Assembly: GCA_937934305.1 (NCBI GenBank)
Contig: CALHAG010000002.1
Span: 13,263-77,262, forward strand
Direction: 5' to 3'
Length of the DNA: 64,000 bases
Source of the DNA: Candidatus Caldarchaeum subterraneum
Lineage (GTDB): Archaea > Thermoproteota > Nitrososphaeria_A > Caldarchaeales > Caldarchaeaceae
A program made the position numbers and the translations under genes. Below, piece after piece: positions 9,580-49,551 of the stretch. The notes beneath the pieces were generated by a model. The model saw only the letters and a program-made list of their open reading frames with translations. It was not told where the DNA came from and did not search any database. Every line of letters starts with the position of its first letter. The stretch's first letter is position 1.

Positions 9580-9618
9580 ACACTCTATCTTTTTTTCCTA
9601 CTTTTTATCTCCTGATGC

Positions 9619-32930: not shown

Positions 32931-33898
32931 GGGTTTTGATGGTTGGGCGAAAGCCTTCGATAGCCTTGGATGAGCTGAGAAAATACTGGGGAACGGTTGA
33001 GGTGGCTACAGGTTTCTTCACTCCGAGGCTGACACGCTACGACCTCGTGATAGCTCAGGAACCAACCGTCAAGATAGGGCTGCCCGCCCTTCTGCAGGCA
33101 AAGCTTTCAAACGCCCTCTTAGTCACAGAGGTGCATGGAGACTACTTGAGGGGAAATTTTCTTCCCTGGAAAGACCGGTTATTCGCATGGTTTGCTCTAA
33201 AGTCGTCGGATTTCGTGAGAGCCGTTAACAATGGCATCGCGTCATTTCTCAAATCAAGGGGATTATCTAATGTTCATGTGATTCCAGCCGTGTACATCAG
33301 GTTGGACATTTTCAAACCTTTGAAAAATCCCGATGAGAGAGGGCATGTTGTTGTAACCGCGGCGAGGCTGGTTCCTGAGAAAGGTCTGGACCTGTTGCTA
33401 AAATCTGTTCCACTTCTGCTGCGAGATTTTCGGGACTTGGAGGTTAGGATACTCGGTGATGGGCCGATGCGGGAAACCCTGCAGCGATTGGCTAGGGAGC
33501 TTGGTGTTGAGGAGGTTGTAAAGTTTCTGGGCTGGGTTTCTCTGGAGGAGCTTGTCAAACACTATAACGAGGCCGCTGTCTTTGTCTGCACATCTATCTA
33601 CGAGGGTGGCCCGAGGACAGTTTTCGAAGCAGCCGCTTGTTTAACACCCAGCGTATCAACACCAGTGGGCATAGTTCCTGAGGTGTTAAAGGAGGAGGAG
33701 AGTGTGTTGCTTGTTGAGAGAAGGGACCCAGTTCTGCTTGCGAAGAAAATAGCACTGCTTCTACATGACAGGGACAAACGCCGTCGACTCGCTGAGAAGG
33801 CTCGCGAGATTGTTCTAAGAGAGTTTGAATGGCCCAAGTCAGTTGAGAGATATGCTAGGTTTTACATCAATTTAGCTGAGAGACGTTTGCTTAAGTAG
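32927..33898 (+). CDS. glycosyltransferase family 4 (GT-B, group 1)
   Basis: C-terminal E-x7-E region ...VCTSIYEGGPRTVFEAAAC. Confidence 0.8.
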   Translation: MRVLMVGRKPSIALDELRKYWGTVEVATGFFTPRLTRYDLVIAQEPTVKIGLPALLQAKLSNALLVTEVHGDYLRGNFLPWKDRLFAWFALKSSDFVRAVNNGIASFLKSRGLSNVHVIPAVYIRLDIFKPLKNPDERGHVVVTAARLVPEKGLDLLLKSVPLLLRDFRDLEVRILGDGPMRETLQRLARELGVEEVVKFLGWVSLEELVKHYNEAAVFVCTSIYEGGPRTVFEAAACLTPSVSTPVGIVPEVLKEEESVLLVERRDPVLLAKKIALLLHDRDKRRRLAEKAREIVLREFEWPKSVERYARFYINLAERRLLK

Positions 33899-35044
33899 TT
33901 CTGCAATCTGAGGAATTACAACCTCGTGGCTGAACTCTTTCTCTATCTTTCTTCTAGCTGCCTCCCCAAGCCTTCGGGCTAGGTTTTTATCACCTAGCAA
34001 TGTAATGAGTGCATCAGCTAGTTGCTCTATGTTTTGGCGTTCAACCAACAGCCCAGTCCCACCATGAATAATTGCCTCGGGTATCCCTGAGACCTTTGTT
34101 GCAACAACAGGAGCTTCACATGCCATGGCTTCTAGGATTGCTCTAGGTATTCCCTCGCCTCCTCGGGACGGGTATGCGAAGACACTACAATTAGCCATAT
34201 AGCGGGGAACCTCTTCATTGGGGATACCGCCTATGAAAAGCACCTTACCTGCTAGCCCGAGCTCATCTGTTTTCTTTTTCAGATGTTTTACGTACAGGTT
34301 GTCGCCTGTTCCCGCTATCACTAGCTGAACGTCTTTTATGTGTTGACAGACTGTTTTGAAAGCTTCGATGAGGTCTCCGACACCTTTTCCTTCGTTGATG
34401 CGGCCAACCCAGAAAACTGTGTCTGCCCCGTTTTTTAGCAGGTTAGGGGGTGACAGTCCGGGTCTGAACCTTTGTATGTTTACCGAGTTGTGTATGATGC
34501 GTACTTTCGATGGGTCGAGTCTGGGTAAGAAGTATCTGATTTCCGGCATCATGTATCGGGAATAGACTGTTACAGCGTCTGCCGAGTATGCGGCTCTCCT
34601 GAGAATCCATCTAAAGATTGATTTCTTCAGCCCGGGTCTCTCGTAGGGTTTGCCGAAGAGCCAAGTGCCGCCAAGAGTCAAGAGCGTGCGCTTGCGTCCT
34701 AGCTTCTTCGACATCCAAAGACTCATGAGTTCAGGTGGGCTGAAGGTTCTGACATAAACTATGTCAGCATGCGTCGTCAGCGGCCCTAATGTGTAAAAGA
34801 GGGTTTTAGTTGCTCCATAGATTTTCGGTATCTTAATTTTTGGAACCTGCTGTATCGTAAGATTGCTGGGAAGATTATCGGGCAGGTATTCTACCGTGTC
34901 CGTTACTATCGTAATTTTGTCGAGATACTCCGCTAACCTGAGATATTCCTCAAAATACTGTGCGTGGAGTGAGGCTGCCTTTAGACCGCTAATACGCCCA
35001 GTAAATGTAACGACTGAGACCATGTGGACCAAATCATCTATCAT
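33872..35044 (-). CDS. glycosyltransferase family 4
   Basis: FAYPSRGGEGIPRAILEAMACEAPVVATKVSGIPE. Confidence 0.85.
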   Translation of the reverse strand: MIDDLVHMVSVVTFTGRISGLKAASLHAQYFEEYLRLAEYLDKITIVTDTVEYLPDNLPSNLTIQQVPKIKIPKIYGATKTLFYTLGPLTTHADIVYVRTFSPPELMSLWMSKKLGRKRTLLTLGGTWLFGKPYERPGLKKSIFRWILRRAAYSADAVTVYSRYMMPEIRYFLPRLDPSKVRIIHNSVNIQRFRPGLSPPNLLKNGADTVFWVGRINEGKGVGDLIEAFKTVCQHIKDVQLVIAGTGDNLYVKHLKKKTDELGLAGKVLFIGGIPNEEVPRYMANCSVFAYPSRGGEGIPRAILEAMACEAPVVATKVSGIPEAIIHGGTGLLVERQNIEQLADALITLLGDKNLARRLGEAARRKIEKEFSHEVVIPQIAELLKQTSLS

Positions 35045-35117
35045 TGAAATAGTATTTTTAGTTGTTTTGTAGCCTTTTATCTAGGAAATTGTTTGGGAGG
35101 ACTGCCGGCTATATTTT

Positions 35118-36013
35118 CTATAATCCCGCCTTTAGTGAGCTTGGCGCAAAAAGATATATTTCCCATGGCGGCGAGAATCTTCCTAGGTTGGTGTATACAT
35201 AAAGTATTGATGCAGATATATTGACTATATAGAGTAGGATTTTGATGTTTCTGAGTCCTATTTTGTTGAGTAGAGGTTTACTGCCCAGCGAAATAGAAAT
35301 TTCTTCTAATCCTAATCCTGCAACGGGCATAGTGGCGTAGTAGGTTACGACGGCTATCCTTAAGTCACAGAATGGCCATGCTGCGTATGAGGCTAGGACC
35401 GGGATTAGCAGGGCGTAGAAGTTCAGGTTTAGCTTTCTGTCTGAAGTGTTTATAAATCCAATGAGTACGGCAGCGGCGCCGAGGGGAAATGACCTAAAGC
35501 AAGGGCCTTTAGTATGTCAATCAAATCCGAGTAGAAAGGGATACTGTAGCGTGTCTGGCTGTATTCGATACCAGCCCGCAGGTAGTGTGTTATGTAATTC
35601 TCGCCAAATGCAAGTGTTGTATATGTTTGCCAGACAATGGCCGGAATTGCTAGTAGGATGGTGAATTTTATTGTTTTTCTATATTCCTTGTCTATTAATC
35701 CCAATAAGACTATAGATAAAACAACTGGTAGTGTTGATTCTTTAGCTAGAAGCCCTACCCCTGCCAAGATAGGGACGAACAGAAGTTTACGCTCGTTCCG
35801 GAATTTTAGGTAAAGCCATAGTGTTAGAAAGGCGAAGAATGTAGCTCCGGCGAACGTGCCCGCATTTGTTGGCCGTTTTAGAAAACATGTTTTCGCTGTT
35901 CTAGAAATTAATAGGTTGAAGAACATGAGGCTTCCATCAAAGAGCTTACAGCCCAAGCACTGGAACAGCGGCTTGACCAACAATAGGTTCAAGCCCACTA
36001 TTATTATATGCAT
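35118..36013 (-). pseudogene. disrupted polytopic membrane protein (GT-C / mannosyltransferase-like?) split by a frameshift near 35485
   Basis: ORFs 36013..35450 and 35330..35118 are in different frames. Hand translation shows the second frame is open from about 35516 and overlaps the first (HFPSAPLP vs SFPLGAAAVLIGF). Low-GC segment. Confidence 0.4.
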
Positions 36014-36031
36014 GCATGAGCCATTCTACTG

Positions 36032-36694
36032 TTACGTTATTTTCTTCAACGCTTCAAGCCCGAATCCGGTTTCTGGTATTATGCGTGCAACCGGTGTCCA
36101 GACATAGTCAGCTAGAAGATATAATTTGTCTATTTTTCCTCTGCCAATTACTGGCCTGAATCCATATCCTTTTACAATGTATCCACGTTCGGCAAAATCT
36201 TGAACAGTCCATCCGGACCTGTGTTGTAAGGGGCCACACCTTTCTGGTTTTGTTTGGTGCCAGCCGTTTGGCGTTGTGAGATAGACATAACCTCCTTTCC
36301 TAGTTATTCTCTCCATTTCACTTAAGAGATGGTGTCCAGCTTGTTTGCTTAGATGCTCGATGACTTCTATGCATATGGTCAAGTCTGCGAAGCCGTCGGA
36401 GAGGGGTATGGGTTCTTTCGCCGAGTCAACTTTAACCGGTTTGTAGATTTTGCTGATTTCCGACAACGTCCTTAGATAAGGCTCGTAAACATTTAATCCA
36501 ACTACCTCAACAGGTCTACCGGCAATAGCTGCCAGCATGTGGCCCGCCCAGCCAAGCCTACAGCCAACATCAACAACAACCCTCTACTCATCACCCAACT
36601 CTCGGCAAAATGAAGCAAATCTAAAGGCGACAATCCCCTCGAGAAGACCCATATCAGCCACTTGTTTACCGCAGATGTATAAAAATTTGTTCAC
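36032..36694 (-). CDS. class I SAM-dependent methyltransferase, interrupted by an in-frame TAG (36586-36584) just before motif I
   Basis: Tracked ORF 36032..36538 starts inside motif I. In-frame upstream: VNKFLYICGKQVADMGLLEGIVAFRFASFCRELGDE-TAG-RVVVDVGCRLGWAGHMLAAIAG... (VVDVGCxxG is the SAM motif). Confidence 0.7.
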
Positions 36695-36699
36695 GTTGT

Positions 36700-38187
36700 T
36701 TATGAAAACATTCTGTTGAAAACGAGTTTTATCATGGTTTTGGCTTCGGTGTCTATGAGCATTATTGTTGCTGTGTAGGCTGCGGCTCCTGTGAGCAGTA
36801 TGGTGATTATTCGTGTTAGCTGGATGATGGCTGTGTTGCTTGGTGGGATGATGAGGTAGATGGGTGTTATGGCGGCTGTCATGAGGAGGGCGGCGATGAT
36901 GTATTTTGCGAGAGGCTTTGCGGGGAGTTGAAATTTTATTCGGCGACGCGAGAAGAGATAACCTACAGTGGTCAGAGATATGCTGAAGCCGAGGTGTGCA
37001 TAGGCCCAGAGCTGAGCGGTCTCCAGATGGGACATGGCCGCAGATTTTGCATACATCGTTGCGAACGAGAAGGCCGCTACATATGCGCTTGCGAGAACAA
37101 GGTAGAAAAGGTTGTAGCGGAAAATTCCCGACCTAAGATAATCGGCCAGAGAGACATCGCTTCTCTTATCCACTTCATCCAAGCCTCCGACAACGCTGGT
37201 GAAGAAATAGCTAAGCCCGTTTATGAAGTAGCTAATCGATAAGACAACGAGTATTGAGGAGGCCTCTGCATATGCCGGCCGGAGAAGCTGTAGAATGTCT
37301 CTTCCCAAGATTAGAGCGCCGAATAGTAGTGGGACACCGAGAAGCATAGCAAACCGGAAAACCTTCTCGATGTCTCTTGAGCCTCCTCCACCGAGTAATA
37401 CGGGGTAGAGACCCACCACGAGGTTGTTGTACATGCCGACGACAAGGGCGACGGTTAAAGCGGCTTGCCAGTAGGCGAGGGGTAGAGCGGAGCCGTAGAG
37501 TACGCCTCCGAGAAAAACATCCAACCCATACACGAACCCGCCCAGAACGGTCAGCAGAGGCACCGCGAACCCCTTCAACCATCTCAGCAAATCTCCAAAC
37601 CTAAAAGAGTCCAGAGTATTTCTCTGTAGGTAGATGAGAATGCTTGCTTGGAGAAGTTGGGCTAACGCGAGGGAGATGAAGACACCCGCGAGTCCGAGGC
37701 CGAGAAAATATACCGCGACAACCGCGAATGTGACTTTAGCCACTTCAAAGACTGCAAAGCCGTAGGCCGATGCGATGGGCTTATGGCCGTAGGACACACC
37801 CTCAGCCGTGTTCAAGAGATGTAGGATGGGGAGCTGTATCAGGCCCAGCATGACAACCCATGGTTCTCGGCCGATGGCCTCAGCTGAAAAAGCCACAACC
37901 CCGAGATAAGCTATGGATAGAATCAGTGACATAAGGACTGAGCCGGCTAACGCGGTTTTGAGAGGTTTGCCGCCTCGGCCCGCGTCCCTCCCGGCCCAGA
38001 AGCTGATAAAAGAAGCCGTTACCGCGAAATATGAGACCAGTCTACCGACGTAGGTCCATGCCCCGAAATCCTCTTCCGAAAGCCTTCTCGCGACAATCAC
38101 TGAGAAGATGAGGCCCGAGGCCAGGCTCGCCATCCTAACCACAAACGACACAAACCCTGTAAGACGGAGCCTCGGCCTCCCGGACAT
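36700..38187 (-). CDS. MOP-superfamily oligosaccharide/polysaccharide flippase (Wzx-like)
   Basis: 495 aa, about 14 TM helices. Confidence 0.85.
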   Translation of the reverse strand: MSGRPRLRLTGFVSFVVRMASLASGLIFSVIVARRLSEEDFGAWTYVGRLVSYFAVTASFISFWAGRDAGRGGKPLKTALAGSVLMSLILSIAYLGVVAFSAEAIGREPWVVMLGLIQLPILHLLNTAEGVSYGHKPIASAYGFAVFEVAKVTFAVVAVYFLGLGLAGVFISLALAQLLQASILIYLQRNTLDSFRFGDLLRWLKGFAVPLLTVLGGFVYGLDVFLGGVLYGSALPLAYWQAALTVALVVGMYNNLVVGLYPVLLGGGGSRDIEKVFRFAMLLGVPLLFGALILGRDILQLLRPAYAEASSILVVLSISYFINGLSYFFTSVVGGLDEVDKRSDVSLADYLRSGIFRYNLFYLVLASAYVAAFSFATMYAKSAAMSHLETAQLWAYAHLGFSISLTTVGYLFSRRRIKFQLPAKPLAKYIIAALLMTAAITPIYLIIPPSNTAIIQLTRIITILLTGAAAYTATIMLIDTEAKTMIKLVFNRMFS

Positions 38188-38259
38188 CGGAGAACCCTTA
38201 AAAACCTATATAATAACGATGAAAACAAGCCGCCAACATTAGATGAGAGTGATGGTAGC

Positions 38260-39339
38260 TTGATGAGAGTTAGGCTGGTTACGGCTGTCTCTGCTTATCC
38301 TTTCTATAACTTTAGGTATCTTAAGCTTTTGGACGAGTTTGCGAGGGTTTTTGATGTTTATTGTTTCGCGGGCAGGGCTTTGGGGAGAAGGGTTAGGCGA
38401 GCTGGTTTTAGGCTGGTGCATGTTTATCCCTTCACGGTTCCTCATAGAATCAGCTACGTTGTCGGCCCATACGTGGCCCAGTTTTTCATGAATGTTATTC
38501 GGGCGGATGTTGTTTGGGTGTTCGACACGGCAACGGCTTTGGCTCCCAACTTTTTACGGTCTCCTGCTGTGCTTGACGTAGAGGACCCGAAGGTTGTTCT
38601 TCCACCGGATGAGCTGGCTAAGCAGTCGAGGCTGTCTTTCGTTCATGAGATGAGGATGCTGAGGGATAAGCGGTTTAGGAAAATAGTTGTAACTACGGAG
38701 ATGATTCGACGAAAGTTTGTTAGTCTCGGGGTTGATAAAGAGAGAATAGAGGTTATTCCATACGGTGTTGATACAGAGTTGTTCAAGCCCTCTCCCCTGC
38801 CCGACGAGCCGGTGGTGCTATACTATGGCACGTTTCAGCCCCATCGGGCACAACTCCTCGTCAAGGTCGTGGAAAAGGTGGCGTCTATGCGGAGTGATAT
38901 AAGGTTTCTGCTGGTGGGGGATGTGCCACAGCCCGTAGCGACCATGTTGAAAAAGGTTGCTGGTGATAGGGTTGAGATGCCCGGTTTTGTTCCACATGAC
39001 GAGCTTCCAAAATGGATTCAGAAATCAAGAATATGTATCTTGACACAGGACAGGTCTTTAGGCGGGAGACTCTCTTTCAAACTACTTGAATACATGGCCT
39101 CTGGAAGGCCTGTGGTCTCAACCGACGTCGACGAATCTTTTCCAGTTCGGGATTCGGGCGCGGGAATAGTAACCCCCATAGACGCCGACGCTATGGCTAA
39201 CGCCATAATCCAATTAATAGATGACGATGCATTGGCTAAGCAGATGGCTGAAAGAGGCGTCAACTACGCAAAACAGTTTGACTGGCGCATGATGGTTGAC
39301 AAATACGTCAACCTAATCAAACAAGTAGCCCAGACGTAG
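38260..39339 (+). CDS. glycosyltransferase family 4
   Basis: GFVPHDELPKW...LLEYMASGRPVVSTDV. Confidence 0.8.
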   Translation: MMRVRLVTAVSAYPFYNFRYLKLLDEFARVFDVYCFAGRALGRRVRRAGFRLVHVYPFTVPHRISYVVGPYVAQFFMNVIRADVVWVFDTATALAPNFLRSPAVLDVEDPKVVLPPDELAKQSRLSFVHEMRMLRDKRFRKIVVTTEMIRRKFVSLGVDKERIEVIPYGVDTELFKPSPLPDEPVVLYYGTFQPHRAQLLVKVVEKVASMRSDIRFLLVGDVPQPVATMLKKVAGDRVEMPGFVPHDELPKWIQKSRICILTQDRSLGGRLSFKLLEYMASGRPVVSTDVDESFPVRDSGAGIVTPIDADAMANAIIQLIDDDALAKQMAERGVNYAKQFDWRMMVDKYVNLIKQVAQT

Positions 39340-39344
39340 AGTGC

Positions 39345-40226
39345 TCAAAATTCCCATAGAACTTTTACAATTCGCCGCGAAGCGCCCGAACCCGTCTGAG
39401 TAGCCTTTTCACGGAGAATTTTGCCCAAGCCCATCTTTTCCCTTAATTTATCCAGTGAGCTGTAGGCGTCGAACTCTCCAGTATCATGAAAATCTACTGC
39501 CAGCTTCTTCACCCCTAAACTGGGGAGCAGAGAGAGTTCATCGATAACGTAGTGCTCACATCCTTCACAGTTTAGCTTAACCACTTCAGGCCTGTATCTG
39601 TTAACTAAATCCAGTAAACCAACTACCGGCACTTGAAGCTTATCGCCAGCACCAGCCCCAAACTCAAGTCCGTATCCCATAGAGCCATATTGTGAAGGAA
39701 GATCCGGAACAGCAGTACCTATAGACGCGTTTAAACATTCAACAGGAAGGCCCCTGACGTTAAGCTCGAGAAACCTAAAGTGGAATTGGACAGGTTCTAC
39801 TGCGATGACCTTTCTGGCATTTTTATGAATCCATAGAAGCGGGGTATCCCCAAGATAAGCCCCTACGTCAAGCACAACCATCCCCTCAACATCAAAATTA
39901 TAGAATTGGTGAAATGCAGAAGGCGGCGCCACTCCCTCAGCCCTAAGAGGAATAGTAAAATCTCTACCGAAATAATTCGGTATAACAAGGGCGTCGGACC
40001 CGAACTTGACAAGGGGAAGCACTTCACCATAATGTCGCCAACTGTTCTCGAGTCTAACAAGCTGTTTCAAAAGAGACCGCCCACTACACACAATTTCACC
40101 TCCTCCCCTTGAAACAAACCTGCCATCCATCCTAAGCAAAGCCCTAAACATAAGAGAAACCCAGTTAACCACATGCTTCCGAGCAACATGAAAAGCAAAC
40201 AAGTAACTTCTAAGCCTGTTCGTCAT
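39345..40226 (-). CDS. FkbM family methyltransferase
   Basis: VVLDVGAYLGDT, AVEPVQFHFRFLELN. Confidence 0.8.
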   Translation of the reverse strand: MTNRLRSYLFAFHVARKHVVNWVSLMFRALLRMDGRFVSRGGGEIVCSGRSLLKQLVRLENSWRHYGEVLPLVKFGSDALVIPNYFGRDFTIPLRAEGVAPPSAFHQFYNFDVEGMVVLDVGAYLGDTPLLWIHKNARKVIAVEPVQFHFRFLELNVRGLPVECLNASIGTAVPDLPSQYGSMGYGLEFGAGAGDKLQVPVVGLLDLVNRYRPEVVKLNCEGCEHYVIDELSLLPSLGVKKLAVDFHDTGEFDAYSSLDKLREKMGLGKILREKATQTGSGASRRIVKVLWEF

Positions 40227-40578
40227 ACCTCAACCCAAACTCAAAAACGCGCAAATATAAAACAATATCCCGCAGACTAGAGGACACAAGATTGTCTAAA
40301 AATTGCGGGAAGATCTCTAACACCCAGATACTTTAAAACAAGATGCGCATCGAGAAAACGTCAAGGTAGGCAACAAAATATATGTGAATTGGACCGAAGC
40401 ATCAAGAAACGTGATGGCTGGGAAGATACATCCGCAGCCATAGAACAATATCACAAAGACACACATTAGCCTAAGGAAAACTAGCAAAACCGCGAACCTT
40501 TAAAAACCAAAACTCCAACGCCTAAACAGGCCCAGGCCATGCATCAAAACAGAAGGAATACACCGAGGCTGGACAAGT

Positions 40579-41682
40579 ATGAAGGTGCTATTCACGGCAA
40601 GCGGTGAAAAAGTGGGCGGAGCCACGCTCGCCATGCTTCATCTAATGCTAGGCCTACCCAGCCAAGGCATCCAACCCATACTCCTCACACCAAACACCTC
40701 CGCAATAAACCCAAACCTAACCAAAAAACTCATGCAAAAAGGTGTCAAAATAGTCGAGGGCCGACACAGACTAAAAGGCCTCCTTCACTGGCTATGGCTA
40801 CTCATAACAACCCTAAAGCTCTCCAGAAAACTCGGCGTCAAGATAATCCACACACACGGCCCAAAAGAGGCCACGGTTTTAGGCATCGCAGCAAAAATAC
40901 TCGGGCTAAAACATGTCTACACAGTCGAGGGGGACCCTATCATAGAAACCTACATCAACAGAAGCGGCCCCGTAGCCACTCTGGTCAACAAAATCCTCTT
41001 CAAAACAGGCCTCCGACTCGCAGACGAGGTGGTAGGATGCAGCCGATGGATGGCCACACACATCACGAAAACCTACGGAATAAAAGCCACACCGATATGG
41101 AACCCCATCGACCACGAAAAATTCTCCAACACCACAACATCCCACCCCGACGAACAAACCATCCTCACCGCAGCCAGACTCGACAAAGTCAAAGACATAG
41201 AAACACTGCTACACGCCGTCGAAGACATAGAACCCATGAACCGCCCCAAACTCCTAATCGCGGGAGACGGCCCACTCAAGGAAACCCTCACCGAAATGGT
41301 GAAAACAAAAAAACTACAAGACAAGGTCATCTTCCTCGGACACAGAACAGACGTTGAAGAACTAATGGCCAAGGCCCACATCTTCATACTTCCATCACTC
41401 TACGAGCCCTTCGGCATGGCGGCCGCAGAAGCCATGGCAGCAGGCAGACCAGTCATAGCATCAAACGTCGGCGGCCTCAGAGAAATAGTAGACCACGGCG
41501 TAAACGGCCTCCTCTTCACACCAAAAAACCACCGCGAACTCGCACAACACATAACAAAACTCCTACAAGACAAAAAACTATGGACCACTCTCTCACAAAA
41601 CGCCAGAGAAAAATCAGCCATCTTCAAACCCGAGAACATAGCGAAACGATACCTAGAGGTTTACATGCGATGCTTAGGTTAA
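40579..41682 (+). CDS. glycosyltransferase family 4
   Basis: ILPSLYEPFGMAAAEAMAAGRPVIASNVGGLREIV. Coding strand strongly A+C-rich and T-poor. Confidence 0.85.
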   Translation: MKVLFTASGEKVGGATLAMLHLMLGLPSQGIQPILLTPNTSAINPNLTKKLMQKGVKIVEGRHRLKGLLHWLWLLITTLKLSRKLGVKIIHTHGPKEATVLGIAAKILGLKHVYTVEGDPIIETYINRSGPVATLVNKILFKTGLRLADEVVGCSRWMATHITKTYGIKATPIWNPIDHEKFSNTTTSHPDEQTILTAARLDKVKDIETLLHAVEDIEPMNRPKLLIAGDGPLKETLTEMVKTKKLQDKVIFLGHRTDVEELMAKAHIFILPSLYEPFGMAAAEAMAAGRPVIASNVGGLREIVDHGVNGLLFTPKNHRELAQHITKLLQDKKLWTTLSQNAREKSAIFKPENIAKRYLEVYMRCLG

Positions 41683-41707
41683 AAAATCGGTCAACAACCC
41701 TCGATGC

Positions 41708-42664
41708 ATGATAATGGTCACGGGGGCGCTTGGGTTCATAGGCAGCCACCTAACCGAAGATCTCCTCGACAAAGGCGAAAAAGTAGCAGGCGTCAGCCAC
41801 CCGACACCACCTGAAAACAACATCAACATCCTAACAAGCCACAAAGCCGCATCAAACCTCCACATAATATACAGCGACCTGAAAAACCTCGACGAAGTAA
41901 AACAGATACTGAAAACAAACGCCCCCACACATGTATACCATCTCGCGGCACTCGCCTCCCACAGACTGAGCATGTCCGAGCCATACAAATACCTCGAAAA
42001 CAACATACTAACCACACTCAACATCCTAGAAGCAGCACGCCTCACAGAACCCAGCCCGCGTATAATTTATTCATCAAGCAGCAGCATCTACGGAAACAAC
42101 AAACCGCCGTTGAGAGAGGACATGAAGCCCGACCCAAGAGGACCATACGCTCTAAGCAAATGGATATGCGAAGAGCTCTGCAGCCAATACGTCAAAGACT
42201 ATGGACTCGACGTCGTCACGGTGAGATACTTCAACGTCGTCGGTGAAAGATGCAGAGGAAACATAGTTTTCCGAGTTTTCGCCGAACGCGCATCAAAAAA
42301 CTTGGACCTTGAGGTCTACGGGCGATTCATCAACGGCGTCTTCAAACCCGCTGCAAGAGACTTCACATACGTCAAAGACGCAGTCCAAGGAACGATTCTA
42401 GCCGCTGAGAAAGGTGTAAAAGGTGAGGTCTACAACATCGGGTTCGGCAGACCGGTCAGCGTCAAAACAGTGGCTGAACTAATCATAAAAAACCTGGGAA
42501 GTCGTTCAAGAATAGTGGAGAAGGAGCTCAAGCCACATGAAAGCCTCGAAAGCTACTCCGATAACAACAAAGCGCGGACACAACTCGGCTGGACGCCGAA
42601 GAAAGACGTAGAGGAAATGGTGCATAGATTCTTAGTATACTGGAAAAATATCCAACAACCATAA
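41708..42664 (+). CDS. NAD-dependent epimerase/dehydratase (extended SDR; UDP-sugar 4-epimerase-like)
   Basis: MIMVTGALGFIGSHL, YALSKWICE (YxxxK). Confidence 0.9.
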   Translation: MIMVTGALGFIGSHLTEDLLDKGEKVAGVSHPTPPENNINILTSHKAASNLHIIYSDLKNLDEVKQILKTNAPTHVYHLAALASHRLSMSEPYKYLENNILTTLNILEAARLTEPSPRIIYSSSSSIYGNNKPPLREDMKPDPRGPYALSKWICEELCSQYVKDYGLDVVTVRYFNVVGERCRGNIVFRVFAERASKNLDLEVYGRFINGVFKPAARDFTYVKDAVQGTILAAEKGVKGEVYNIGFGRPVSVKTVAELIIKNLGSRSRIVEKELKPHESLESYSDNNKARTQLGWTPKKDVEEMVHRFLVYWKNIQQP

Positions 42665-42838
42665 ACCATAATCGCTCAAAAACTTAGAAACAATCTCCAA
42701 CGTGCCGTCAACAGAGCCACCATCAACCACCACAACATCACCAACCATATCACCCAACTCCACCAAACCTTCTAGACAATCACGAATAGTCCTCGAAGAA
42801 TTCCTAGTTAAAATGACGAACGAAACTTCTGCAACAGA
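42632..42838 (-). pseudogene. remnant of a family-2 glycosyltransferase (N-terminal about 65 codons only, no start codon)
   Basis: Hand translation of the minus strand: SVAEVSFVILTRNSSRTIRDCLEGLVELGDMVGDVVVVDGGSVDGTLEIVSKFLSDYGLWLLDIFPVY*. VIxxxN and VVDxGSxDGT are GT2 hallmarks. Ends inside the epimerase 3' end. Confidence 0.5.
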
Positions 42839-43079
42839 TTACAAACAGGCCCTATTTATTTTTCAAGAGAGACAACATCACTAAAATACACTCGGCACCA
42901 ACAACGATGCTAACAGAGCAGATTATTCCTCAAATTCCTTTTTCGTAAAAAATTCTGAATCCTAAATATGAGCACCAACCCCATATGCTTGAAACCTTGG
43001 ATAAGAAGCTGAGCTGGCAGTGGTTATTACCTCGGGTAAAACAGGTAATACCTAGATACCGAGAAATATTTCATTAAAC

Positions 43080-43331
43080 ATGAAGGTTGTTAGCGTCAAG
43101 GTAGACGACAGCACTAAAGCCAAAATGGAAAAGTTTAAAGACGTTAACTGGTCTGAGGTAATAAGAAAAGCCATCATTGAAAGGATTAAGTTCAAGGAAA
43201 GTTTACGTACAGAGATAGACAAGCGCCGTGCGCATCATGCTTCTGAGCGGATGGAGAAGCTTAGGGAGAAAACAACCGGTAAATGGAGCGGGGGCGAGGA
43301 GATTAGGAAGTGGCGCGAGCTGAGACTATAG
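43080..43331 (+). CDS. VapB-like antitoxin (archaeal RHH/AbrB-like family), paralog of 45078..45329
   Basis: MKVVSVKVDDSTKAKMEKFKDVNWSEVIRKAIIERI compared with 45078 copy VVAVKVNKRLKEAMRRYSNRVDWPSEIRTFIMEKI. Confidence 0.5.
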   Translation: MKVVSVKVDDSTKAKMEKFKDVNWSEVIRKAIIERIKFKESLRTEIDKRRAHHASERMEKLREKTTGKWSGGEEIRKWRELRL

Positions 43332-43498
43332 TTATTGACGCGTCTGTGGCCGTTAAATGGTTTAACAAAGAGGAATATTCAGATGACGCAGATCGGTTGA
43401 AGGATGCCCATGTGAGGGGGAGGATAAGACTTGCGGCTCCTGAGCTACTTTTGTATGAGGTTTTAAACGCGCTACGCTATAACGCTGAGCAGCCCTAA
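43310..43498 (+). pseudogene. truncated PIN-domain (VapC) gene, N-terminal about 60 codons only
   Basis: IVIDASVAVKWF...LAAPELLLYEVLNAL is the PIN N-terminus. Stop after 62 codons, whereas VapC is about 130 aa. Confidence 0.5.
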
Positions 43499-43504
43499 GA
43501 CTAG

Positions 43505-43729
43505 TTCGCCAAACATGTTCTCACTAATGCCGCATCGAATCTTCGCATAATTTACAGATACCTGAAAAAGACGAAACAGGGCCTCGAAAGCTACTCAGAC
43601 AACACCAAAGCACGTAAACATCTATGTTGGGAGCCGAAAACAGACATCGAGCAGATGATGAAAAAATTCACAGAATATTGGAAGAACACAAACCACTTAA
43701 CTGATAAGATTATAAACCAGGTCACATGA
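43505..43729 (+). pseudogene. 3' fragment of a second NAD-dependent epimerase gene (no start)
   Basis: Open frame ...NLRIIYRYLKKTKQGLESYSDNTKARKHLCWEPKTDIEQMMKKFTEYWKN aligns with the C-terminus of 41708..42664 (ELKPHESLESYSDNNKARTQLGWTPKKDVEEMVHRFLVYWKN), about 75% nt identity. Confidence 0.55.
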
Positions 43730-44808
43730 TTATCTTTTGGACAATGGCCCAGAGGCTGAGGAAGCAGTTCATCGATTTGCTGGAGAAGGATGTCGAGTTC
43801 CGGTACACAGTGGCAGGCTACCTTGGGTTATCCGAGGTTTTGAAGAGGCTTGACGCAGTGGAGGCGGAGCTACGAGGTCTACGCGAGGATGTGAAGAAGC
43901 TGTGGGAGGAGGTGAAAAGCCTCCGAGAGGAAGAGAACAAGCTATGGGAAGAGGTAAAGAGCCTTAGAGAAGGGCAGAACAAACTGTGGGAAGGCCAGAA
44001 CAGGCTATGGGAAGAGGTCAAGAGCTTGAGAGATGGTCAGAACAAACTGTGGGAAAGCGTTGAGAAGCTTTGGGTAGAAGTCAAAAACCTTAGAGAGGGT
44101 CAGGAGAAACTCTGGGAAAACCAGAACAGGCTTTGGGAGGGGCAGAATAAGCTGTGGGAAGAGGTGAAGAGCCTTAGAGAAGGGCAGGAGAAGCTGTGGG
44201 AGGAGGTGAAAAGCCTCCGAGAGGGGGAGAATAAGCTATGGGAGGAGGTGAAGAACCTTAGAGAGGGTCAGGAGAAACTCTGGGAAAACCAGAACAGGCT
44301 TTGGGAGGGGCAGAACAAGCTATGGGAGGAGGTGAAGAACATGAGGGATAGTTTGAACAGGTTGTGGGAGTCTCATTTCCGTCTAGAGAAATATGTCAGG
44401 ACTGGATTTGAGGGGCTTCGGAAGGCGCTTCACATCACATTCGAAGACTACTCCCGCTCCTTTACCCAGCTGCTTCTCGAGGAAATGGGGTATGGCTGGC
44501 GTGAAGTGGATAGGAAGATTCTGGTTTCCGACGGTGAACCGGTTGAGGTTGATATCTTCTGTGAGGAGCCGCTGGTTGTGGGTGAGGTTACCTCGTTGCT
44601 GGAGAGGTGGGAGGACGTGGAGAGGGAGCTTGATAGATTGGAGAAACGGGTTGAGCTCGCCAGCCGTGTTTATGGGAGAAAGCCCGAGATGGTGCTTCTC
44701 TGCGTTGGCCGTGTCTCTGAGGACATTGCTCCAAGCCTCCGACGCGCTGCCTCGACCAAGGGTGTGAGGCTTGTTCTCGGCGGCGAGATAAAGGAGGCCG
44801 TTGTCTAA
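43726..44808 (+). CDS. coiled-coil protein with about 25 tandem 11-residue repeats (LWEEVKxLREG) and a C-terminal alpha/beta domain of unknown function
   Basis: 360 aa. Residues about 55-225 are near-perfect undecad repeats. C-terminal 135 aa are non-repetitive (…ILVSDGEPVEVDIFCEEPLVVGEVTSLLE…). Family not recognised. Confidence 0.6.
   Translation: MIIFWTMAQRLRKQFIDLLEKDVEFRYTVAGYLGLSEVLKRLDAVEAELRGLREDVKKLWEEVKSLREEENKLWEEVKSLREGQNKLWEGQNRLWEEVKSLRDGQNKLWESVEKLWVEVKNLREGQEKLWENQNRLWEGQNKLWEEVKSLREGQEKLWEEVKSLREGENKLWEEVKNLREGQEKLWENQNRLWEGQNKLWEEVKNMRDSLNRLWESHFRLEKYVRTGFEGLRKALHITFEDYSRSFTQLLLEEMGYGWREVDRKILVSDGEPVEVDIFCEEPLVVGEVTSLLERWEDVERELDRLEKRVELASRVYGRKPEMVLLCVGRVSEDIAPSLRRAASTKGVRLVLGGEIKEAVV
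43897..44350 (+). repeat. intragenic tandem repeat array (33-bp units, with a higher-order 168-bp unit)
   Basis: A 61-bp stretch at 44084-44144 is repeated exactly at 44252-44312 (spacing 168 bp). Many 33-bp units such as gaggtgaagagccttagagaagggcagaacaag. Confidence 0.85.
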
Positions 44809-44825
44809 GCTATTCTGTCTGTGAA

Positions 44826-44861
44826 ATGGCTGTTGTGTGAACCGATACAGAAGCAAATAAC
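44826..44861. repeat. 36-bp direct repeat, copy 1 (31/36 identical to 46804..46839)
   Basis: aagctattctgtctgtgaaatggctgttgtgtgaac versus aagctattctgtctgtgaggtggctggtgcgagaac. Confidence 0.7.
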
Positions 44862-45077
44862 TTTACAACAGAGGTTGGTGAACCTATACCTTCAGATGGA
44901 GGGGCTTTCTCCACGCGCAAAGTTCTTTGAGGAGCTTGTGAATTCTTGGAGCGGGTTAACCCGACGAGTGAGGATGCTGATGAGGAGCCCGATGAAGCCA
45001 AGAGCCATATCTCCATATGATGTCTACATGGCTGCAGAACCCGTAAATAAGTTAGGTATAACCGTAGGTTTATAAAA

Positions 45078-45329
45078 GTGTATAACGATGAGTTTACTGT
45101 GAGCAGTGTAGTCGCCGTCAAAGTCAACAAAAGATTGAAGGAGGCTATGAGACGCTACAGCAATCGGGTTGACTGGCCTTCCGAGATCAGGACATTTATC
45201 ATGGAAAAAATTAGGAGGCTTGAGGCTGAGGAAAATCTTGAAAGAGTGGTGAAGATGTTGGAGGAAACGGGGAGTGTCGAGGAGGGGTTCAGCCTCAAAG
45301 CCGTGAGGGAGGACCGTGATAGTCATTGA
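45078..45329 (+). CDS. vapB: VapB-like antitoxin
   Basis: 83 aa. 14-nt overlap with the downstream PIN gene. Confidence 0.6.
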   Translation: MYNDEFTVSSVVAVKVNKRLKEAMRRYSNRVDWPSEIRTFIMEKIRRLEAEENLERVVKMLEETGSVEEGFSLKAVREDRDSH

Positions 45330-45714
45330 CAGCTCGATACTAGCATCGTTCATCCTAAAAGAGCCCGGTTGGGAAAAAATCAAAGAACTAATGCTTGATG
45401 CCGTGACAGTTGACCTAGCAATCAAAGAAGTCTTTAATGCTCTGTTGATAGCGTGCCAAACCGGTCGGATAACCTTCGAAGATGCGCAGAAGAAGGCCGA
45501 GGCTCTCGAAAAACTCATCACAATTAATGTCAAAACTTTCAATCAAGAAGATATACTGATGGAATCTTTCGAGCTTGCATACAAAGAAAAATTGACAATT
45601 TACGACAGCTTGTTCATTGTTTTGGCCCGGAAGCTCAAGCTACCCCTCGCCACGAAAGACCGGCGCCAGCACGAGGTGGCGCTTTTGGCTGGTGTGCCAG
45701 CATCACTTTACTAA
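45316..45714 (+). CDS. vapC: PIN-domain ribonuclease VapC
   Basis: MIVIDSSILASFILKE... D-x-E-D-D PIN acidic residues, 132 aa. Confidence 0.8.
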   Translation: MIVIDSSILASFILKEPGWEKIKELMLDAVTVDLAIKEVFNALLIACQTGRITFEDAQKKAEALEKLITINVKTFNQEDILMESFELAYKEKLTIYDSLFIVLARKLKLPLATKDRRQHEVALLAGVPASLY

Positions 45715-45741
45715 TCGGAACACATCTTTCTAGATGGAATG

Positions 45742-46167
45742 TCACAGTTGTAAGCTGTTCATTAATTTTCTGACCGCCTCGAATACTTTTTCGGCGTCTG
45801 AGAGAGCTTTTTCGGCATCGATTTTTGCATAAATTTCTTCTGGCGGAAGGTTAAGCTCTTCGTCGCCGTACATGGCCGTTTCTCTCTCCTTCCTTAAAGC
45901 TCTCGATATGGAGGCCAGTTCATCAATCTGTTCGTTCATCCACGATGGGAACCTGCTTTTCTCTCTTCTGAGTATTGGTCCGACATCATGCCATTTAGGC
46001 GGCTCGACTCCGACCAGTCTCAACGCAGCTTTGAGGGAAAGCTCCACACATTCTTGACAAAGTCTTACGGCGTATGCGTAGCTGCCTTTCTGTAGGGCTG
46101 TTTTCGCTGTTGTCAACCGCTCCTCGGCCTGTCTAAGGTTGGACTTGGCCATCTCCAGATTGTCCAT
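45742..46167 (-). CDS. HEPN domain protein
   Basis: 141 aa, all-alpha, ...RALRKERETAMYGDEE (R-x4-6-H/Y-type HEPN motif). Confidence 0.65.
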   Translation of the reverse strand: MDNLEMAKSNLRQAEERLTTAKTALQKGSYAYAVRLCQECVELSLKAALRLVGVEPPKWHDVGPILRREKSRFPSWMNEQIDELASISRALRKERETAMYGDEELNLPPEEIYAKIDAEKALSDAEKVFEAVRKLMNSLQL

Positions 46168-46726
46168 TTATCTTCACCCTCTTCACTCCGCCGCCTTTCC
46201 AGAGCCTCCAGTACCATTTCCTCCCTATCCACACCCTTTCAGCACCCATCTTCTCTAGATTAGCCCTTAGAGAATTGAGGAGGTTTGTAAGGAAACTGTC
46301 TTTGTCGTATAGTATTACGGCGTCTTCGGTCATGTCTAGGAGAATGCTGGGTATTCGCGCGGCCTCTTGGGGTGTGAGGATGATTGGTGAGATGGAGACG
46401 CCGTAGCCCCGTTCATAAAGAGTGTCCAGGAACTTGTCCAAATCTTTCTCGCATTCTATGAACAGCTCTGTTCTATCCAGCCTGTTCTTAGGGAGCTTCT
46501 CACACACAACCATCACATCCAAATCGCTTTCTTTCCCCGCTTCACCTCTTGCAACAGAGCCGAAAACAGCGACGGAGACCAGCCGATCACCCAGCCGTCG
46601 GTGAAGGCTTTCCACCAGCTTTTGAGCAAGTGTTCTGTACGGCTCCTCCAGCAAAGCTTCAGTCACAAAATACGGGTTTACCGGTATAATTAAAGCTAAG
46701 CCAAAAAGCGTCGCGTGACATTCCAT
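46133..46726 (-). CDS. nucleotidyltransferase (MNT) with C-terminal extension, partner of HEPN
   Basis: VFGSVARGEAGKESDLDVMVV. Confidence 0.75.
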   Translation of the reverse strand: MECHATLFGLALIIPVNPYFVTEALLEEPYRTLAQKLVESLHRRLGDRLVSVAVFGSVARGEAGKESDLDVMVVCEKLPKNRLDRTELFIECEKDLDKFLDTLYERGYGVSISPIILTPQEAARIPSILLDMTEDAVILYDKDSFLTNLLNSLRANLEKMGAERVWIGRKWYWRLWKGGGVKRVKINGQSGDGQVQP

Positions 46727-46803
46727 AACTTGTATAGTAATTGCTCTGGCGGCTGATGCGATTTTGTTGCGGGTGGTGACTTTTGTAGGCTACGGGGTTG
46801 TTG

Positions 46804-46839
46804 AAGCTATTCTGTCTGTGAGGTGGCTGGTGCGAGAAC
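46804..46839. repeat. 36-bp direct repeat, copy 2
   Basis: See copy 1. Confidence 0.7.
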
Positions 46840-47001
46840 TCTCTTGATGTAGTTTTGTCTGTTTCTTTGTCGTGGGAAGGGTGATTTGCGTGGCTTGGCC
46901 TCGAGCTTGGGTGTCTGGCTTCTCACTTTTCCCGCTTTTGTGATGCTTCCGTGGGACGGCATGCCAATATGTTGACTGTTTTTCCTGTATATTAGGGCTA
47001 T

Positions 47002-47008
47002 CTCGTTT
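47002..47008 (+). promoter_or_regulatory. TATA-like box (tttatat) about 30 nt upstream of the nop5 ATG; leaderless-type promoter
   Basis: Sequence and spacing only. Confidence 0.4.
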
Positions 47009-47037
47009 ATATCGCGGGATGGTGTTCTTTTCCGCGG

Positions 47038-48216
47038 ATGTCTCGGGCTGTTGTGGTGCCGATGGGTGTTGGCTGGGCTGGTTTGGACGATGATGGAAGG
47101 CTTGTTTTGCTGAGGTTTTTTTCGGAGAAGGTGGATGAGCTTGTGCGGATTGTTTCCTCGAATGATTTACCCTCGGGGTTTGTTGAGGCTTTTCTCAAGG
47201 AGCTGCGGGAACGTGGATACTCTGTTCTGGGTTACTGGGATGAGAGAGTGGGCGATGTGTTGAACAAGTATGCGGCTTCTTTTGGTTTTTCTCTTGAGAG
47301 GGTTGAGAAGAGGCTGGTGGATGTTGAGTCTCTTTTGCCATCTTCAGAGGTGGAGAGGTTTCGCGAGCTTGTTCGAGAGGTTTCCTTGGCGGTGGCCCGG
47401 CAGCGTATCATGGCCGAGGCCGGGCGGAGAGACCTTCACATCGTCCACGCTGTGAGGGTGCTCGACGACCTTGAGAAGACGAAAAACCAGCTCTACGTCC
47501 GTGTGAGAGAATGGTATAGTGTTCATTTCCCTGAGCTATCCTCTCTCCTGACCGATGGCGATGATTTTCTCAAGTTCGCGTCGGTGCCGGTTTTGCGGCA
47601 TAGTTTGGATGAGCGGGTGGTTTCGAAGCTGCTGGGCCCTGATTTGGCTAGACGGGTTATGGAGGCTGCTGAGAAGTCTGTCGGCGGTGACATGGGGCCC
47701 GGTGACGCGGCGATGCTTTCGGCAACGGCTTCACTTGGGCTAGAGGTGAGCAAGCTTGCTGAAAAAACCGCCGAATACATACGTGAGTTGATGGCTTCCG
47801 AGGCACCGAACCTATCGGCAGTGGCTGGCCCTGTTCTGGGCAGTAGGCTGATTTCTTTGGCGGGCGGGCTTGAGCGTCTCGCACGGCTTCCCGCAAGCAC
47901 CATTCAAGTCCTCGGAGCGGAGAAGGCCTTGTTCAGGTTCCTGAAAACAGGACGCGGCTCCCCCAAACATGGCGTGATATTCCAGCACCCGCTTATACAC
48001 ACGGCGCCGAAGTGGCAGAGAGGCAAGATTGCAAGGGCCCTCGCCACCAAGATAAGTATAGCCGCGCGCATAGACTATTTCTCTAAAGGGGACAGGGGTG
48101 CGCAGCTACGTGAAGCCTTGGAGAAAAGGGTTGAGGAGATACGTCGTAAATATGCTTCACCGCCTGCGAAGAAACCTTTGGCGAAACCCGTTGAAAGGAG
48201 GCGTAGAAGAAGGTGA
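47038..48216 (+). CDS. nop5: C/D box sRNP protein Nop5 (Nop56/58)
   Basis: NOP domain ...[20 protein letters not shown]...[19 protein letters not shown], Lys/Arg tail. Confidence 0.9.
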
Positions 48217-48908
48217 AGCCGTCGATTAAGCCTCATCCACGTTTTGAAGGTGTTTATTTCGTCGAGGGGGTTGAGGGGCTTAGGCCTGCGACCAAGAGCT
48301 TGGACCCAGGGTTTCAGGTCTATGGTGAGGAGCTTGTCAAGGCAGGTGACGGGGAGTATCGTGTGTGGAACCCTTTCCGAAGCAAGCTTGCAGCCGCCAT
48401 CCTGAGGGATGTGAAGGAGATTTTCATACGACCCGGGTCAAGGGTTCTTTATCTCGGCTCCGCATCGGGGACAACTGTTTCACATGTCTCCGACATCGTG
48501 GGGCCGCGGGGGATTGTGTATGGCGTCGATTTTGCTCCAAAGGTTATGCAGCAGTTTATCCAGAAAGTTGCCGAGCGCAGGAGAAATGTTGTACCTATAT
48601 TGGCTGATGCGTCGAAGCCTGAGACCTATGCTCATCTCGTCGGTGTGGTGGACGTTATCTATGCTGATGTTGCGTGGCCTGCTCAAGCCGACCTCGTCGC
48701 CGCCAATGCGCGGCTTATGCTGCGGAAGGGAGGAGGTGTTTTGCTGGCTGTGAAGGCGCGGAGCATCGACAGCGTAGAGGAGCCGGGCAAGGTTGTAGAC
48801 CGAGAGGTGCGTACGCTTGCCTCTAGCGGGTTTGAGATAAGGGAGACTCTTGGGCTCGAGCCTTTTGAGAAGGACCATGTGATGGTTGCGGCGGTCTACC
48901 TTGGCTAA
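48213..48908 (+). CDS. flpA: fibrillarin-like rRNA/tRNA 2'-O-methyltransferase
   Basis: YRVWNPFRSKLAAAIL, VLYLGSASGTTVSHVSDIVG, IYADVA. ATGA-type overlap with nop5. Confidence 0.92.
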   Translation: MKPSIKPHPRFEGVYFVEGVEGLRPATKSLDPGFQVYGEELVKAGDGEYRVWNPFRSKLAAAILRDVKEIFIRPGSRVLYLGSASGTTVSHVSDIVGPRGIVYGVDFAPKVMQQFIQKVAERRRNVVPILADASKPETYAHLVGVVDVIYADVAWPAQADLVAANARLMLRKGGGVLLAVKARSIDSVEEPGKVVDREVRTLASSGFEIRETLGLEPFEKDHVMVAAVYLG

Positions 48909-49551
48909 GGGTTTGCTTTGCGGTGTTGATGAAGCAGGTAGAGGCTGTGTGGTCGGGCCTCTGGTTATCGCGGCTGTCGCCGCCGAGCGTGATGAACTAC
49001 CTCTGCTCAAGGCTTTGGGTGTGGCTGATTCGAAGACGCTTTCTCCGAGAAGACGTGAAGAGATTTTTGAGAAGCTGCGGACGAGTTTTCGGGTCGGGTA
49101 TATGGCGGTTACGCCGAGACGTATCTCCTCGTGTCTCAGGGTTAACGGCGGCGATGGGTTGAACGAGCTTGAATATGGTGTGATGGCGGAGCTTGTGCAG
49201 AGTTTTCGGCCGCGGATTTTGTTTGTTGATTCGCCTGACAGGGATGTGAGACGTGCTCGTCGGAGGCTTTTGGAGAAGCTTGAGATGGAGATGGATGTTA
49301 GGTGTATGGTGAAGGGTGATAGGCGGCATGTTTTGGTCGCCGCGGCCTCTATAGTTGCGAAAGTGGTGAGGGACAGGAAAGTGGAGATGCTACGGAGGCG
49401 GCTGGGCGACTTCGGCTCAGGGTATCCATCCGACCCGAAGACACGGAAATGGCTTCTCGAGAACCTTGGACAAGCAGCCATAAAACCATACATTCGCACG
49501 GGTTGGGCCACCCTTGAAAACCTCAGACAAACAAGGCTCGACGAGTTCTAG
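48886..49551 (+). CDS. rnhB: ribonuclease HII
   Basis: LCGVDEAGRGCVVGPLVIAAV. Confidence 0.9.
   Translation: MRRSTLAKGLLCGVDEAGRGCVVGPLVIAAVAAERDELPLLKALGVADSKTLSPRRREEIFEKLRTSFRVGYMAVTPRRISSCLRVNGGDGLNELEYGVMAELVQSFRPRILFVDSPDRDVRRARRRLLEKLEMEMDVRCMVKGDRRHVLVAAASIVAKVVRDRKVEMLRRRLGDFGSGYPSDPKTRKWLLENLGQAAIKPYIRTGWATLENLRQTRLDEF

Follow-up and report, generated by a model that had tools for sequence, protein, structure and literature searches.

How did the remains of several genes come to lie within 1.1 kb of each other at the edge of a glycosylation locus in the hot-spring archaeon Candidatus Caldarchaeum? The stretch of DNA analysed here, referred to as the window, is 64,000 nucleotides (nt) of contig CALHAG010000002.1 (assembly GCA_937934305.1). 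At 42632–43729 it carries the start of a family 2 glycosyltransferase gene (GT2), a vapB antitoxin gene with a damaged vapC (PIN domain) toxin gene, and a fragment of an epimerase gene, beside an epimerase gene that is whole. Comparison with related loci suggests that this 1.1 kb region is probably a single recombination scar with strain-specific decay, not a set of three genes that are dying independently. The fragments sit between the glycosylation locus, which includes a UDP-glucose dehydrogenase, several family 4 glycosyltransferases (GT4), a flippase-like gene, methyltransferases and the epimerase, and a small islet holding a coiled-coil protein gene, an intact vapBC pair and a HEPN/nucleotidyltransferase pair, which is followed by S30e, Nop56 and fibrillarin. 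Identical proteins are found in public records under the name Candidatus Caldarchaeum sp. The original prediction, made from the letters of the DNA, had recognised three partial genes here, and all three exist where it placed them, with corrections of detail.

The working epimerase (41708–42664, plus strand) is a NAD-dependent sugar epimerase/dehydratase of 318 amino acids (aa). It matches PF01370 and PF16363 over its full length (PF16363 positions 1–331 of 332, E 2e-57) and its translation has the features of an extended short-chain dehydrogenase/reductase (SDR), with GxxGxxG present as GALGFIG and YxxxK as YALSK. Homologues of this gene led to two sister lineages. The first is the Ca. Caldarchaeum subterraneum reference (L106), together with L100 and L101 from the same kind of sample, with DNA that is approximately 87% identical. 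The second is GCA_041641305 (L097/L098), at approximately 73–84% identity. Measured per 100 nt against the L101 gene, identity over 41033–42580 is mostly 85–97%, with a low of 81% at 42283–42382. It stands at 97% for 42433–42532, and in the last two segments it falls to 80% and 67%. There are 3 mismatches to L101 in the 134 nt of 42425–42558 and 30 in the 106 nt of 42559–42664 (28%). The maximum chi-squared breakpoint is at 42559–42594 (Fisher p 7e-7), the first mismatch to L101 on this side being at 42559. The switch directly follows the 16 nt sequence GCCTCGAAAGCTACTC (42543–42558), which is identical here, at 43581 in the epimerase relic, and in the sister genome L101, and which is the putative crossover point. 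Judged from this divergence, the working epimerase is a chimera, having a resident 5' part of 851 nt (41708–42558) and a foreign 3' end of 106 nt (42559–42664) that supplies the last 35 or so codons and the stop.

The native end of the gene can be recognised approximately 1 kb downstream. Relic piece 2 (43581–43729, plus strand), which includes the right copy of the 16 nt core (43581–43596), is collinear with L101 2211–2491 (81%) and L106 8836–9126 (80%), through the stop codon and into the next gene. Altogether 43581–43862, from the relic end and its stop into the beginning of the coiled-coil gene, can be aligned gap-free with the sister 3' end and the sequence downstream of it (282 nt, 81%). 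This gapless collinearity across the stop codon means that the fragment is the positional orthologue of the end of the sister's gene. In C. subterraneum (L101 and L106) there is a single epimerase and, immediately after it, 47 codons from the start of the coiled-coil gene, the gene that ancestrally stood next to the epimerase 3' end and that is at 43744–44808 (plus strand) in the window. The peptide of piece 2 matches the sister protein, P0001, at 31 of 38 positions, compared with 25 of 35 for the working tail. What was taken for the remnant of a second epimerase gene is therefore the displaced 3' end of the only one. The identity of approximately 75% that had been noted between the two copies is confirmed (43581–43686 versus 42543–42648, 74.5%, blastn E 7e-14).

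A tandem duplication of the epimerase tail in place can be ruled out, since the working copy holds more unique and more nonsynonymous changes. Unique changes over the 113 nt that can be aligned number 18 in the working tail, 14 in the relic and 5 in the sister. The proportion of nonsynonymous differences (pN) is 0.154 for the working tail, 0.092 for the relic and 0.034 for the 5' part of the epimerase. Duplication in place would predict faster drift in the pseudogene copy; the reverse is seen, which argues that the native tail is the relic and that the one in service came from a more distant homologue. In the window the frame of the relic is still open; in L108 it carries a 1 nt deletion and in L110-type strains other 1 nt deletions. 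In L110 the ATG at 43726, which overlaps the relic stop codon, is replaced by AAG, so the apparent ATGA coupling is coincidental, and 43744 is probably where the coiled-coil gene begins.

The 16 nt cores at 42543 and 43581 bracket 1,022 nt that are absent from both sister species. These contain the foreign tail, the GT2 stub, a spacer of 253 nt, vapB, the damaged vapC (vapC'), approximately 12 nt, and a smaller relic piece 1 of the epimerase. No GT2 stub, vapB or vapC is present at this site in L106/L101 or L098, which bears out the proposal that a toxin-antitoxin (TA) module invaded here: vapBC arrived by insertion. Relic piece 1 (43511–43580, plus strand; approximately codons 41–66, with small indels) had been overlooked, and the reading of the 74-codon frame as a C-terminal fragment stands for piece 2 only. 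Piece 1 is in the same frame as the C-terminal piece. Its segment 43526–43569 is 82% identical to 41843–41886 (approximately codons 46–60), with similarity at the protein level extending to approximately 43511. The peptide, HVLTN-AASNLRIIY, shares 14 of 18 positions with P0001, having V and R as in P0001 and not as in the window's own gene, and its divergence of approximately 18% is near that of piece 2. This fits a resident origin for piece 1 as well, on a sample of sequence that is too small for certainty. The whole fragment (43511–43729) retains only codons 41–66 and 279–318, approximately, and has neither GxxGxxG nor YxxxK, so it cannot be classed as an SDR. Similarity searches of the region found no trace of codons 1–40 of a second epimerase. 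Likewise, the spacer that separates the GT2 stub from vapB (42827–43079, no strand), which has no open reading frame (ORF) and no Rfam match, and the filler after vapC were searched for a relic, of S30e or otherwise, with chance-level matches only. Rfam at a permissive threshold over 40000–47200 returned no match and no sign of a hidden RNA gene. A promoter and terminator scan with bacterial-type consensus sequences gave counts near the shuffle expectation and is not informative for an archaeon.

The GT2 stub (42632–42832, minus strand) matches PF00535 at positions 1–50 of 168 (E 1.6e-7) and so falls well short of a full GT-A domain of approximately 170 residues with the DXD/catalytic region; its homologue in L023 covers positions 1–167. 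Its homologous part, codons 1 to approximately 51 at 42832–42680, is 48–54% identical to the start of intact 304 aa GT2 genes in L023 and L019. In these more distant Caldarchaeum the GT2 gene is on the minus strand, directly downstream of S30e. As had been predicted, the frame lacks a start codon and ends inside the epimerase 3' end, with an overlap of 33 nt. The codon aligned to the ATG of the homologues is GCA, with a TAA three codons upstream. Homology ends approximately 16 nt from the epimerase stop codon, and the frame then continues to a stop inside the epimerase 3' end. The stub differs from that of L108 at 8 of 162 nt (4.9%), a density of substitutions that no other part to the left of the coiled-coil gene, coding now or formerly, reaches. 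Because a GT2–epimerase pair is seen at this site in neither sister species, the stub belongs to the inserted DNA, and an ancestral GT2–epimerase arrangement, disrupted by the TA module, finds no support. A GT2 gene at the edge of the locus is therefore a long-standing theme of the family, and at this site in this genus it came in already cut to 17% of its length.

The vapB gene (43080–43331, plus strand) encodes a VapB-type ribbon-helix-helix antitoxin of 83 aa, assigned to PF26688 in the public record; its match to NCBIfam NF050799 (E 6e-9, 36 bits) is below the 60-bit cut-off. It overlaps vapC by 22 nt, and the same length and layout are found with a full PIN partner in L102–L105 and L108. 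In a metagenome scan the VapB relatives at 60–67% identity were all of 83 aa, each followed by a PIN gene of 144–165 aa. The ORF is therefore whole, although the gene had been called degenerate. That word may describe a trend, as the window VapB carries derived K37, K39 and G71 at positions conserved in its relatives, and 7 of the 8 changes that separate it from L108 are nonsynonymous, these being small numbers. Upstream of vapB by 30–55 nt is a perfect 8 nt inverted repeat, TATTACCT-10 nt-AGGTAATA (43025–43032 and 43043–43050). This could be an antitoxin operator, as a sequence-based candidate, a match of this size not being rare by chance in 270 nt.

The PIN ORF (43310–43498, plus strand) had been described as stopping after about 60 codons; it has 62. 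It matches PF01850 at positions 1–47 of 120, with a Pfam score of 21.0 against a gathering score of 23.6, and it is 66% identical to the N-terminus of a 144 aa PIN gene in L102. It is not truncated by a premature stop or by a cut at a junction; the defect is an internal, in-frame deletion. This is evident from contig L108, traced through cluster membership, which shares 97.8% identity with window 39091–43490 and has the same tail, stub and relics together with an intact vapC of 141 aa. The window has lost 237 nt (79 codons) corresponding to L108 4402–4642, with the junction at 43489/43490 and the original stop retained. That vapC was cut at its joint with the epimerase relic is ruled out, as in L108 the intact gene is followed by the same relic. 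Of the four acidic residues that a PIN toxin carries over approximately 120–140 residues, VapC' keeps only D10 and E50; the YD and AD positions seen in L108 and L102 are inside the deletion. NCBI and UniRef list this 62 aa product as "type II toxin-antitoxin system VapC family toxin" or "PIN domain-containing protein", with no flag to mark it as partial. L109–L111 have a different deletion, of 613 nt from the spacer (approximately 42999) into vapC, with loss of vapB and the 5' part of vapC and retention of the vapC part that is missing from the window. Viral contigs scanned with VapB and VapC' contained no relatives.

The window layout, with equal spacing, is found in 13 other assemblies or metagenome contigs from different samples, hence the fragments are not errors of assembly or sequencing. 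A total of 17 distinct records share the structure: 13 with the window allele, 3 with the 613 nt deletion and 1 with intact vapBC. There are no substitutions in 42559–43596 among L001–L008, and the within-species diversity of these loci is therefore uninformative as evidence. The intact vapC in L108 indicates that the vapC deletion came after the insertion. Likewise, the presence of three alleles on one relic scaffold implies that insertion with the whole TA cassette came first and was followed by independent losses.

These observations are probably explained as follows. The comparison shows that the ancestor shared with Ca. C. subterraneum had GT4, the epimerase and the coiled-coil gene with nothing between them. 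Approximately 1.27 kb of foreign DNA, a length reconstructed from the strain with the whole vapC, was then fixed inside the epimerase in the lineage of the window. This DNA carried a divergent epimerase 3' end, an already truncated GT2 start, the spacer and a complete vapB–vapC cassette. The left joint is at the 16 nt identity of 42543–42558 and would be the result of homologous recombination inside the epimerase; the gene stayed in frame and gained a new tail of 35 codons. The native tail (43581–43729) was pushed approximately 1 kb downstream, where it still adjoins its old neighbour. The right joint was probably illegitimate, approximately 10 nt past the vapC stop and onto epimerase codon 41 or thereabouts of a second genome copy. 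Since the right joint falls upstream of the left joint, codons 41–283, approximately, must in that case have been duplicated, either by way of two genome copies or by integration of a circular intermediate. Approximately codons 67–278 of the right-hand copy would have been deleted afterwards. Later, strain-specific deletions removed 237 nt of vapC (in the window and 13 assemblies) or 613 nt (in three assemblies), with one strain unaffected. It is likely that none of the fragments is functional, with the possible exception of vapB: lacking a functional toxin partner, it might serve as an orphan antitoxin whose constraint is relaxed. The prediction that successive insertion and deletion events had left real remnants at the edge of the glycosylation locus thus holds. 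In the synteny with close relatives, the insertion and the remnants are borne out, and the paralogous epimerase and GT2–epimerase ancestry are not.

Several points weigh against this recombination scar. The choice between a gain here and a precise loss in C. subterraneum rests on parsimony with one outgroup, L098. No donor of the tail was found, a word-indexed protein search with the 74 aa relic giving no candidate, and the same type of search of a large protein database with the GT2 stub found no close relative, only its own 44 aa ORF. The breakpoint statistics rest on approximately 110 nt of tail, and C-termini in general evolve faster. Between the relic and L101 the ratio of pN to the proportion of synonymous differences (pS) is approximately 0.2, so that most of the divergence predates the loss of function and has little power for dating. 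The origin of piece 1, whether resident or from the donor, rests on 44–70 nt, and target duplication is not cleanly separable from a Campbell-type integration of a circle. The position of the GT2 start beside the epimerase stop codon is also not accounted for.

One alternative is that a paralogous second epimerase and a resident GT2 formed an ancestral pair, that vapBC invaded between them, and that the three then decayed independently. The GT2 gene beside S30e at the locus edge in L019 and L023 would agree with this, as would a relic with pieces of both the 5' and 3' parts of an epimerase, which is what a decayed full gene would leave. So too would the composition at third codon positions, where A+C is typical in vapB (0.43) and vapC' (0.35) and atypical to their left, in the GT2 stub and the epimerase, although the relic to their right, at 0.60, is not atypical. 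However, both sisters hold a single epimerase and no GT2 here, and it is the relic, not the working tail, that is the orthologue of the sister 3' end in position and sequence. The working gene is chimeric with its breakpoint exactly where the relic begins, and codons 1–40 of the supposed second gene are untraceable. This explanation is therefore unlikely. An artefact of assembly or binning, through chimeric contigs or collapsed repeats, might be suspected, since every source is a metagenome assembly and strains vary in the upstream part of the locus. It is extremely improbable, given that 13 further records, which come from different samples and assemblers, have exactly these junctions and that the other alleles share the relic scaffold.

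The remaining alternatives accept the insertion and differ on its nature or age. The insert could be the eroded remnant of a site-specific integrative element that targeted the epimerase 3' end and brought a replacement tail, its integrase and most of its cargo having been deleted since. Toxin-antitoxin and glycosyltransferase genes are typical cargo of integrative elements. The architecture also fits, with an element-borne tail, the native tail at the far end and an identical 16 nt core at both joints, and the layout of icd, e14 and icdC provides a precedent (PMC13626634). Yet identical cores and a replacement tail also follow from plain homologous recombination within a gene, and the 16 nt core, lying inside ordinary gene homology, need not be an attachment (att) site. 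There is no integrase or mobility ORF or domain in 42559–43596 or in the islet up to S30e, the vapB and vapC genes have no relatives in viral contigs, and relic piece 1 (approximately codons 41–66) beside the right joint is unexpected for a simple attR. Such an origin is accordingly doubtful, and there is only a slim chance that the insert of approximately 1.3 kb is what is left of a so far undescribed element of the Caldarchaeales (Aigarchaeota) at the 3' end of a nucleotide-sugar epimerase with its own tail. If this is true, TA and glycosyltransferase genes would be cargo that the element brings to the edge of the glycosylation locus. Slightly less probable still is that the insert predates the split from Ca. 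C. subterraneum, which would have removed it precisely by recombination between the tail repeats, restoring a single gene. Direct repeats of more than 100 nt do flank the insert, repeat-mediated deletion is documented for icd and icdC (PMC13626634), and the C. subterraneum-type locus has other deletions nearby, in the coiled-coil gene cut after 47 codons and in the damaged HEPN gene. Against this, the outgroup L098 is also without the insert, the sister tail is not a mosaic (5 unique changes in 113 nt), and the repeats, at 75% identity and with pS of 0.59 between them, are already divergent and poor substrates. None of these alternatives fits as many of the observations as does the recombination scar.

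The wider locus is variable between strains and species. Differences among near-identical assemblies fall nearly all in 33000–39000, and 39500–49000 is almost invariant. A swapped cassette is present at 33855–35896, with a GT4 on the minus strand and a 176 aa ORF in the window type, and a GT4 on the plus strand and a 331 aa epimerase in L003–L005. A convergent pair of a GT4 and an FkbM-family methyltransferase (TIGR01444, E 5e-14) is inverted as a unit between window 38260–40226 and L098 4421–6395 (GCA_041641305). On the other side of the scar, the coiled-coil gene has approximately 18 in-register copies of a 21 nt (7-residue) unit at 43853–44390, and its product varies by strain (360/354, 340, 333, 256 and 242 aa). 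Ca. C. subterraneum keeps this gene only up to codon 47, with a stop at codon 3. The C-terminal 142 residues of the protein have no Pfam or NCBIfam match. The HEPN gene is damaged in the C. subterraneum-type loci (L101 2467–2800, L106 9023–9316), where tblastn finds two pieces in different frames and a 97 aa gene is called. In L109–L111 (approximately 9320–10500) one product of 295 aa is called, and the window has overlapping, separate genes of 141 aa and 197 aa. S30e and Nop56 are adjacent in the window (46962/47038) and in distant Caldarchaeum. In the sisters the gap between them holds an 835–859 aa minus-strand gene with a weak fn3 match, or three smaller genes (L098 11386–13965, L101 3644–6151, L106 10268–12776). 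The border between the glycosylation locus and S30e/Nop56 is a hot spot for insertion and deletion across Caldarchaeum.

Codon usage at this border is also unusual. Third-position A+C is 0.84 in the GT4 and 0.76 in the epimerase (window 40579–42664), an extreme use of A- and C-ending codons, compared with 0.31–0.65 in the other long genes of the window and 0.77 in S30e. The GT4 and epimerase proteins have a high content of T, K, H, P, N and Q. In both sister species the orthologues and a flippase have the bias as well (L098 7334–10960, L100 5481–7575), which is not seen in the distant Caldarchaeum L017, L022 and L023. The bias could reflect atypical codon usage or a strand-specific mutation bias. 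In the GT2 stub third-position A+C is 0.17 on the minus strand, and the plus strand of 39299–42983 is 63.5% A+C. The idea of a strand-specific compositional island at 39.3–43.0 kb, independent of gene orientation, is weakened because genes of the genus prefer G- and T-ending codons, so that minus-strand neighbours look rich in A+C on the plus strand. The real outliers in composition there are only the GT4, the epimerase and the 54-codon GT2 stub.

The locus shows, in an uncultured thermophilic archaeon, how a gene outlived an insertion thanks to a new 3' end brought by the incoming DNA. It also shows the dismantling of a TA system at several stages in co-existing strains, by different deletions: an intact module, one in which the toxin alone is disabled, and one that has lost the antitoxin together with most of the toxin. 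For annotation, the public 62 aa "VapC family toxin" is a deletion derivative without half of its active site, and the open 74-codon frame is a relic.

In Escherichia coli, the cryptic prophage e14 gives icd a new in-frame 3' end, and direct repeats of gene sequence, in icd and the icdC pseudogene, bracket the insert (PMC13626634). The epimerase is alike in both respects, with an in-frame 3' end from the inserted DNA and direct gene repeats around it. The insert here, in an archaeal host, is however only approximately 1.0–1.3 kb, without integrase or phage genes, and the right joint has an additional relic piece, derived from the 5' third of the gene. With 28% nucleotide divergence, the tail is also far more distant from its counterpart than icd is from icdC. 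As in the decay of other type II VapBC systems, vapB and vapC overlap, a deletion has inactivated the toxin and left the antitoxin ORF open, and the loss alleles of other strains differ. There is nothing unusual in this, although the in-frame 237 nt deletion and the three co-existing alleles document the process well. Cassette exchange by recombination is known in surface-polysaccharide and glycosylation loci. The scar resembles such exchange in that it borders a strain-variable locus with a swapped cassette and clustered single-nucleotide polymorphisms, with identity to the sister that is mosaic (75–97%). It differs in that DNA was added and part of the target gene duplicated, rather than one allele being cleanly replaced by another. 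The region is an ordinary recombination scar with toxin-antitoxin decay, and it should be seen as a fresh example of known processes, not as a new kind of system.

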